Positions 20,341 to 22,488 of a DNA stretch of 64,000 nucleotides are shown one piece after another. The notes under the pieces were generated by a model, which ran no database searches, was not told the origin of the DNA, and was given only the letters and a program-made list of their open reading frames with translations. The DNA lies in assembly GCF_013122565.1 (NCBI RefSeq), contig NZ_CP053258.1. One strand, written 5' to 3'. Within the stretch, counting starts at the first letter, position 1. Each line of letters begins with the position of its first letter. The stretch comes from Escherichia coli (GTDB lineage Bacteria; Pseudomonadota; Gammaproteobacteria; Enterobacterales; Enterobacteriaceae). A program made the position numbers and the translations under genes.

Positions 20341-22488
20341 ATGAAAAAAGTCGTCACGGTTTGCCCCTATTGCGCATCAGGTTGCAAAATCAACCTGGTC
20401 GTCGATAACGGCAAAATCGTCCGGGCGGAGGCAGCGCAGGGGAAAACCAACCAGGGTACCCTGTGTCTGAAGGGTTATTATGGCTGGGATTTCATTAACG
20501 ATACCCAGATCCTGACCCCGCGCCTGAAAACCCCCATGATCCGTCGCCAGCGTGGCGGCAAACTCGAACCTGTTTCCTGGGATGAGGCACTGAATTACGT
20601 TGCCGAGCGCCTGAGCGCCATCAAAGAGAAGTACGGTCCGGATGCCATCCAGACGACCGGCTCCTCGCGTGGTACGGGTAACGAAACCAACTATGTAATG
20701 CAAAAATTTGCGCGCGCCGTTATTGGTACCAATAACGTTGACTGCTGCGCTCGTGTCTGACACGGCCCATCGGTTGCAGGTCTGCACCAATCGGTCGGTA
20801 ATGGCGCAATGAGCAATGCTATTAACGAAATTGATAATACCGATTTAGTGTTCGTTTTCGGGTACAACCCGGCGGATTCCCACCCAATCGTAGCGAATCA
20901 CGTAATTAACGCTAAACGTAACGGGGCGAAAATTATCGTCTGCGATCCGCGCAAAATTGAAACCGCGCGCATTGCTGACATGCACATTGCACTGAAAAAC
21001 GGCTCGAACATCGCGCTGTTGAATGCGATGGGCCATGTCATTATTGAAGAAAATTTGTACGACAAAGCGTTCGTCGCTTCCCGTACAGAAGGCTTTGAAG
21101 AGTATCGTAAAATCGTTGAAGGCTACACGCCGGAGTCGGTTGAAGATATCACCGGCGTCAGCGCCAGTGAGATTCGTCAGGCGGCACGGATGTATGCCCA
21201 GGCGAAAAGCGCCGCCATCCTGTGGGGCATGGGTGTAACCCAGTTCTACCAGGGCGTGGAAACCGTGCGTTCTCTGACCAGCCTCGCGATGCTGACCGGT
21301 AACCTCGGTAAGCCGCATGCGGGTGTAAACCCGGTTCGTGGTCAGAACAACGTGCAGGGTGCCTGCGATATGGGCGCGCTGCCGGATACGTATCCGGGAT
21401 ACCAGTACGTGAAAGATCCGGCTAACCGCGAGAAATTCGCCAAAGCCTGGGGCGTGGAAAGCCTGCCTGCTCATACCGGTTATCGCATCAGCGAGCTGCC
21501 GCACCGCGCAGCGCATGGCGAAGTGCGTGCCGCGTACATTATGGGCGAAGATCCGCTACAAACTGACGCGGAGCTGTCGGCAGTACGTAAAGCCTTTGAA
21601 GATCTGGAACTGGTCATCGTTCAGGACATCTTTATGACCAAAACCGCGTCGGCGGCGGATGTTATTTTACCGTCAACGTCGTGGGGCGAGCATGAAGGCG
21701 TGTTTACTGCGGCTGACCGTGGCTTCCAGCGTTTCTTCAAAGCAGTTGAACCGAAATGGGATCTGAAAACGGACTGGCAAATCATCAGTGAAATCGCTAC
21801 CCGAATGGGTTATCCGATGCACTACAACAACACCCAGGAGATCTGGGATGAGTTGCGTCATCTGTGCCCGGATTTCTACGGTGCGACTTACGAGAAAATG
21901 GGCGAACTGGGCTTCATTCAGTGGCCTTGCCGCGATACTTCAGATGCCGATCAGGGGACTTCTTATCTGTTTAAAGAGAAGTTTGATACCCCGAACGGTC
22001 TGGCGCAGTTCTTCACCTGCGACTGGGTAGCGCCAATCGACAAACTCACCGACGAGTACCCGATGGTACTGTCAACGGTGCGTGAAGTTGGTCACTACTC
22101 TTGCCGTTCGATGACCGGTAACTGTGCGGCACTGGCGGCGCTGGCTGATGAACCTGGCTACGCACAAATCAATACCGAAGACGCCAAACGTCTGGGTATT
22201 GAAGATGAGGCATTGGTTTGGGTGCACTCGCGTAAAGGCAAAATTATCACCCGTGCGCAGGTCAGCGATCGTCCGAACAAAGGGGCGATTTACATGACCT
22301 ACCAGTGGTGGATTGGTGCCTGTAACGAGCTGGTTACCGAAAACTTAAGCCCGATTACGAAAACGCCGGAGTACAAATACTGTGCCGTGCGCGTCGAGCC
22401 GATCGCCGATCAGCGCGCCGCCGAGCAGTACGTGATTGACGAGTACAACAAGTTGAAAACTCGCCTGCGCGAAGCGGCACTGGCGTAA
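20341..22488 (+). CDS. fdhF: Formate dehydrogenase H (selenocysteine at in-frame UGA 20758-20760)
   Basis: Track ORFs 20341-20760 and 20809-22488 are in the same frame, separated only by a TGA; N-terminal Cys cluster CPYCASGC; 715 aa when read through. Confidence 0.9.
20758..20800 (+). promoter_or_regulatory. Bacterial SECIS hairpin directing Sec insertion at the fdhF UGA
   Basis: UGA followed immediately by CACGGCCCATCGGTTGCAGGTCTGCACCAATCGGTCGG, which can form a stem-loop. Confidence 0.7.

Follow-up and report, generated by a model that had tools for sequence, protein, structure and literature searches.

We analysed a stretch of 64,000 nucleotides from Escherichia coli (contig NZ_CP053258.1, hereafter the window), in which positions 20341 to 22488 of the given strand carry fdhF, the gene of formate dehydrogenase H. 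The sequence of this locus and its conservation make it very probable, short of certain, that fdhF is a single gene in which the UGA at codon 140 is decoded as selenocysteine (Sec) by way of a downstream selenocysteine insertion sequence (SECIS), yielding the 715-residue formate dehydrogenase H. The locus is already known: it is the founding and best-studied case of bacterial selenocysteine recoding, and both the protein, over all 715 residues, and the SECIS region are identical to those of the K-12 gene (b4079). The evidence that stands above chance is the match to the Rfam family SECIS_2, the full-length identity to a protein of the Protein Data Bank (PDB) and the comparative data.

One reading frame with an internal UGA

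A mechanical list of open reading frames (ORFs) splits the gene into 20341..20760 (139 aa) and 20809..22488 (559 aa), both on the plus strand, both beginning with ATG and lying in one common frame. An earlier note, made from the letters of this DNA, had claimed that the two are separated only by the TGA at 20758-20760, and ORF list and translation bear these coordinates out to the base. Translation of 20341-22488 in one frame gives 716 codons, among which this TGA is the sole internal stop, the terminal one being TAA. The frame is open from 20761 on, and 20809 is merely the position of the first ATG past the TGA.

The earlier note also held that read-through would give a 715-aa formate dehydrogenase. 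Searched against PDB with an X at position 140, the read-through product agreed at each of its 715 residues with chain 1aa6_A, ‘formate dehydrogenase H’, as it did with 1fdi, 1fdo, 2iv2 and 7z0t. Chain 1aa6_A carries a non-standard residue at 140, the same position as the UGA codon and the one at which an alignment to FdhF had been predicted to show a U. The NCBIfam equivalog TIGR01591 (Fdh-alpha) was matched at 1089 bits (cut-off 666.25) by residues 6-685, covering profile positions 1-672 of 672. Cys8, Cys11, Cys15, Cys42, UGA140, His141 and Arg333 were all found in the translation; we take the four cysteines to be the [4Fe-4S] ligands, and Sec140-His141 and Arg333 to be the active-site residues seen in the crystal structure of formate dehydrogenase H. 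Sec140 has been described as the catalytic residue of the enzyme (PMC10945757). With FdnG and FdoG, the E. coli formate dehydrogenases N and O, and with Desulfovibrio FdhA the protein shares membership among the molybdo/tungsto-pterin formate dehydrogenases and a catalytic Sec encoded by UGA, but those enzymes are periplasmic, Tat-exported subunits of about 1000 residues with other SECIS sequences. The PDB relatives 1kqf, 1h0h and 6sdr were more distant (E about 1e-45, with the best stretch aligning residues 2-250 only), and on the model SECIS_3 the SECIS of the window scored 35.8 bits, under the threshold of 63.

Within the species the locus is nearly universal. Of 5426 complete E. coli genomes, 5419 contain the fdhF DNA (best identity 99.7%), annotated there as a single coding sequence (CDS) named fdhF, and 5411 of 5420 E. 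coli records have the SECIS 55-mer without any change. This annotation, TIGR01591, the PDB identity and the Rfam match agree with what the earlier note had proposed, namely that the gene is fdhF with a recoded UGA. Over the whole gene, 1299 E. coli records differ from the window by 1-5%. Compared with K-12 we counted 19 single-base differences over 2408 nt, three of them non-coding (20265, 22492 and 22513). The 16 coding differences are without exception synonymous, falling before the UGA at codon 50 and after it in codons 184-683; there is no difference in codons 51-183, hence none inside the SECIS. Exclusively synonymous changes together with an identical 55-mer are not the behaviour of a pseudogene or of two unrelated genes.

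The SECIS hairpin and its synonymous sites

A stem-loop-forming sequence and a SECIS had been claimed to follow the UGA, and both were recovered. The SECIS_2 covariance model (RF01988) was matched at 20753-20807 on the plus strand with 87.1 bits (gathering score 70, E 1e-18) over model positions 1-55 of 55, and this was the only match to the model in the 64-kb window. The minimum free energy (MFE) fold of 20760-20799 has -14.2 kcal/mol and the same structure as in Rfam. Its upper part, the 17-nt hairpin GGUUGCAGGUCUGCACC (20772-20788), folds as ‘(((.(((....))))))’ with a GGUC apical loop at 20779-20782 and a bulged U at 20774/20775, and 11 nt (20761-20771) lie between it and the UGA. G23, U24 and the bulged U17, counted from the U of UGA, are together with the 11-nt spacing presumably the features of fdhF that SelB contacts, and the minimal SelB-binding SECIS is said to have been defined by Huttenhofer 1996 and Liu 1998. 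In its loop bases, bulged U and 11-nt spacing, GGUUGCAGGUCUGCACC corresponds to this 17-nt minimal element. For fdhF, a SECIS that follows UGA140 and encodes amino acids 141-153 has been described (PMC4513850).

Other genera were scanned, with one genome per species (GTDB), using a degenerate pattern for CCARV-x-HGP in which the third base of the critical codon was left free. All cross-genus counts refer to the matches listed, at least 120 loci (L002-L121). Among them are 56 loci with TGA, 63 with TGC or TGT (TGY) and one spurious TGG. The TGA loci belong to Enterobacterales and Pasteurellaceae, and among the matches listed TGA is replaced at that codon only by the Cys codons TGC/TGT. The Cys-type FdhF paralogues of Enterobacterales have the same CCARV-x-HGPSVAGL context and, like the Sec-type genes, about 575 codons after the site, but they differ in having Cys for Sec, no SECIS hairpin and free synonymous variation downstream. 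Since the two groups encode nearly the same peptide (HGPSVAGL...), the TGY group controls for constraint at the protein level, which makes the comparison a clean internal control: the RNA structure leaves its mark on synonymous sites only in the genes with UGA.

In the TGA genes, the synonymous-codon entropy was 0.46 over codons +1 to +14 as compared to 1.09 in the flanking 60 codons, whereas the TGY paralogues had 1.47 inside and 1.15 outside. At the hairpin apex, formed by codons 146-149 (GCA GGT CTG CAC), the entropy of the TGA genes was exactly zero; for the same HGPSVAGL peptide, the Cys paralogues draw on up to 6 codons at a residue, with an entropy of 1.4-2.1. Under the Rfam structure, 90.9% of cells were paired in the TGA set (33 distinct sequences), with 24-49% for slid 3’ partners, as against 63.4% in the TGY set, where helix 2 reached 55.7% and one pair was formed in 0 of 57 sequences. 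The GGUC loop was present in 33/33 distinct TGA-type sequences, while the four most frequent apical loops of the 57 TGY paralogues were GGUU, GGGC, GGCC and GGGU, GGUC not being one of them. The mean MFE of the 17-nt hairpin was -3.8 kcal/mol in the TGA set and -1.3 kcal/mol in the TGY set (Mann-Whitney p = 3e-10). Past the TGA, the frame remains open for 574-577 codons in all but one of the 43 TGA loci with a checkable end. These patterns indicate that there is purifying selection on the RNA at the hairpin, beyond coding constraint, and that it is present only where the codon is UGA. Homologues thus carry either TGA with a frozen hairpin or, at this strictly conserved position, a Cys codon (TGY) without the hairpin, and not, as the earlier note had allowed for, a sense codon with no conservation at this site.

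Some individual loci depart from the common form. In one TGA locus among L002-L121 the frame closes 64 codons past the Sec codon, which may reflect a genuine pseudogene or a misassembly. In the Pasteurellaceae loci L003, L030, L053, L055, L076, L083 and L119 the upper stem of the SECIS has the sequence UGUAGCAGGUCUGCUCA or UGUAACAGGUCUGCUCA. Here the U-A pair and adjacent bulged U have apparently become a bulged U followed by A-U, with the bulge shifted by one and GGUC kept, and in L053, L083 and L119 G24 is changed to A and the G24-C33 pair is broken. Sec-type (TGA and SECIS) and Cys-type (TGY, without SECIS) FdhF occur together in many Enterobacterales genomes. Paired copies were seen in Citrobacter werkmanii (L004 with TGA, L005 with TGT) and Enterobacter sp. 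Bisph1 (L006 and L007), and Hafnia paralvei carries both types on one 63-kb contig (L047 and L048). The E. coli genome has at least one match among those listed (L050, TGA).

Several results weigh against a decoding of UGA140 through this SECIS. Measured against shuffled sequences, the stability of the hairpin is unremarkable (z = -0.93, with 38/200 shuffles folding at least as well), and over the full 40 nt the Cys paralogues are nearly as stable as the TGA set (-11.3 vs -12.7 kcal/mol). Covariation is thin: the only compensatory change concerns the pair 20772-20788, which is G-C in 26 sequences and U-A in 7 others, every one of them from Pasteurellaceae. The TGA sequences are moreover related to each other, so that the counts are not independent events, and the 64-kb window contains no tRNA gene and no sel gene, which places the evidence for the decoding machinery at the level of the species.

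RNA folding after the UGA had been suggested as a check on the SECIS. A hairpin with the GGUC loop does form, but it is no more stable than shuffles, and with a z of -0.93 folding alone neither confirms nor refutes the element. Free-energy folding was therefore dropped as a decisive test, and the covariance-model score and the synonymous-site analysis were used instead. As stability over the full 40 nt barely separates TGA from Cys genes, the hairpin would be recognised by its specific sequence and structure and not by its stability. The thin covariation follows from the fact that most SECIS positions never vary, so that support comes mainly from position-specific purifying selection.

Decoding of UGA140 and competing readings

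The selenocysteine machinery is present in the species: of 5426 E. coli genomes, 5424 have an annotated selC, the gene of tRNA-Sec, and selA, selB and selD are annotated in K-12. Following established work on fdhF, the C-terminal domain of SelB would bind the hairpin apex, and SelB-GTP would carry Sec-tRNA(Sec), the selC product made by SelA and SelD. Tethered to the ribosome while the UGA moves into the A site, the ternary complex would outcompete RF2, and ribosomes that do not recode would release a 139-residue fragment. The full-length product would be a molybdopterin and [4Fe-4S] enzyme acting as the formate-oxidising part of the formate hydrogenlyase complex, with Sec140 probably coordinating the molybdenum of the bis-MGD cofactor in the active site. 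SelB binding and a read-through dependent on selB/selC and on the hairpin have been published for K-12 fdhF (PMC4513850), the SECIS sequence of which is identical here. The same paper gives a recoding efficiency of about 30-40% in vivo, dependent on selenium supply, with SECIS deletion constructs as the no-recoding control (PMC4513850).

That recoding is incomplete and selenium-dependent lends some colour to the idea that UGA and SECIS also act as a selenium-sensing switch, in which the 139-residue termination product or a translational uncoupling would have a regulatory or physiological role of its own. A report on Treponema primitia describes selenium control of the transcription of an fdhF gene through translational uncoupling (PMC3892789). 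Nothing in the sequence supports such a role beyond the known incomplete recoding, and the N-terminal fragment comprises no more than the [4Fe-4S] domain and a portion of domain II. We consider a switch improbable; it would be an addition to the decoding of UGA140 as Sec and not an alternative to it. If true, it would explain the coexistence of Sec-type and Cys-type FdhF in many Enterobacterales genomes.

A true alternative would be a read-through independent of the SECIS, by suppression of the UGA with near-cognate Trp- or Cys-tRNA, in which case the conservation downstream would be purely a matter of protein constraint. E. coli does show near-cognate suppression of UGA at a low level, and the HGPSVAGL peptide is conserved in the Cys paralogues too. 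However, the TGA genes use one codon at each of residues 146-149, where the Cys paralogues vary freely, and with synonymous sites frozen in this way protein constraint cannot explain the conservation after the UGA. The SECIS_2 score above the gathering score and the solved protein with its non-standard residue at 140 speak against suppression as well. We rejected it on the conservation data and regard it as extremely unlikely.

It is equally hard to believe that the TGA is a nonsense mutation and the locus an fdhF pseudogene or two separate genes of 139 and 559 aa, even though the ORF list gives two ORFs and the exact fragments exist as separate public protein entries, each on at least 1000 contigs: the same TGA and 55-mer recur throughout E. 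coli, 56 loci from other genera have the TGA as well, the frame runs on for about 575 codons past it, all differences from K-12 in the coding sequence are synonymous, the second ORF has no start codon in 20761-20808 and no ribosome-binding context, and a two-gene model leaves untranslated residues 141-156, which show strict conservation and form part of the crystal structure. The conservation data refute this reading, and the split protein entries are artefacts of callers that ignore recoding.

Annotation, flanking signals and neighbouring genes

The fragment entries form clusters of 2374 (139 aa) and 11377 members (559 aa) in the public protein collection and bear names such as ‘Formate dehydrogenase H [Escherichia coli]’. 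The expectation of the earlier note that automated callers would misreport the gene was therefore right for naive callers, which split it, but not for RefSeq/PGAP, which annotates one CDS of 2148 nt; some of the RefSeq/PGAP fdhF records are named ‘selenocysteine-containing’. As naive callers split fdhF, it is correct for a scan to flag such loci, and this one can serve well as a positive control for the detection of recoding and for recoding-aware annotation. The features of the gene are compiled in the table.

Features of the fdhF locus (positions in the 64-kb window)
Feature	Position	Strand	Basis
fdhF CDS, 715 codons and TAA, predicted Sec at codon 140	20341..22488	+	translation, PDB identity, TIGR01591, RefSeq annotation
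In-frame UGA, predicted selenocysteine 140	20758..20760	+	translation; TGA kept in 56 other-genera loci
Full SECIS, Rfam SECIS_2 (RF01988), outer helix 20753-20757 / 20803-20807	20753..20807	+	covariance model
Main SECIS stem-loop, overlapping codons 141-153	20760..20799	+	MFE fold equal to Rfam structure
Upper 17-nt hairpin GGUUGCAGGUCUGCACC, candidate minimal SelB-binding element	20772..20788	+	sequence and fold
Shine-Dalgarno-like GGAG, 8 nt before ATG	20329..20332	+	putative, read from sequence
Sigma-54-type -24/-12 promoter-like element TGGCATAAAAGATGCA, 51 nt upstream of ATG	20274..20289	+	one mismatch to TGGCAY-N5-TTGCW
Intrinsic-terminator-like hairpin ACAGCCTCC-TTCC-GGAGGCTGT followed by T7, 14 nt past the stop codon	22502..22530	+	terminator scan

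The sigma-54 pattern occurs in the 64-kb window at chance level (7 matches, 7.07 expected). Among 57 TGA-type loci from other genera, 38 have TGGCAY-N5-NTGCA at a matching place, about -470 to -500 relative to the TGA. The weight of TGGCATAAAAGATGCA as a candidate promoter element therefore comes only from this conserved position in other genera, the pattern alone being uninformative. We take fdhF to be sigma-54/FhlA dependent, and the conserved position is consistent with that. The hairpin downstream of the gene has 9 pairs, 6 of them G-C, a loop of 4 and a T-run. Both the sigma-54-like element and the terminator hairpin are found in K-12 as well, with the terminator loop differing at one base (22513).

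The neighbourhood in the window is that of K-12, with mdtNOP upstream of fdhF and yjcO downstream. In E. coli the gene is generally flanked by yjcS, ytcA and mdtNOP on the upstream side and by yjcO, gltP, the nrf operon and acs on the downstream side. The 24 kb from 8000 to 32000 of the window reach only 97.8-98.3% identity with the best-matching complete E. coli genomes, and only 395 genomes cover at least 80% of this region. Upstream of yjcS lies an island with sugar ABC-transporter, isomerase and aldolase genes, which is annotated in strain C9 and evidently variable among strains.

In the interval 23276-24737, between yjcO and gltP, we found an element of the IS110 family, the ORF of which (23539-24519 on the plus strand, 326 aa) scored 252.7 bits on NF033542, ‘IS110 family RNA-guided transposase’. 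Strain C9 has an IS110-like transposase of the IS621 family in the same yjcO-gltP interval, whereas strain 88-3493 is without it; IS621 is a family of bridge-RNA recombinases. Taken as an IS621 copy, the element also sets the window apart from the K-12 locus. Matches to the Rfam family naRNA4 (RF02564) were found five times in the window, at 70.8-102 bits (2100-2176, 2200-2276, 23276-23346, 24667-24737 and 35272-35343), and represent intergenic palindromic repeats of the REP/BIME type. The third and fourth of these flank the IS110 element, which fits an insertion into a REP sequence. The Hfq-binding small RNA sraL (RF01408) was matched over its full length at 42583-42723 on the plus strand with 153.3 bits.

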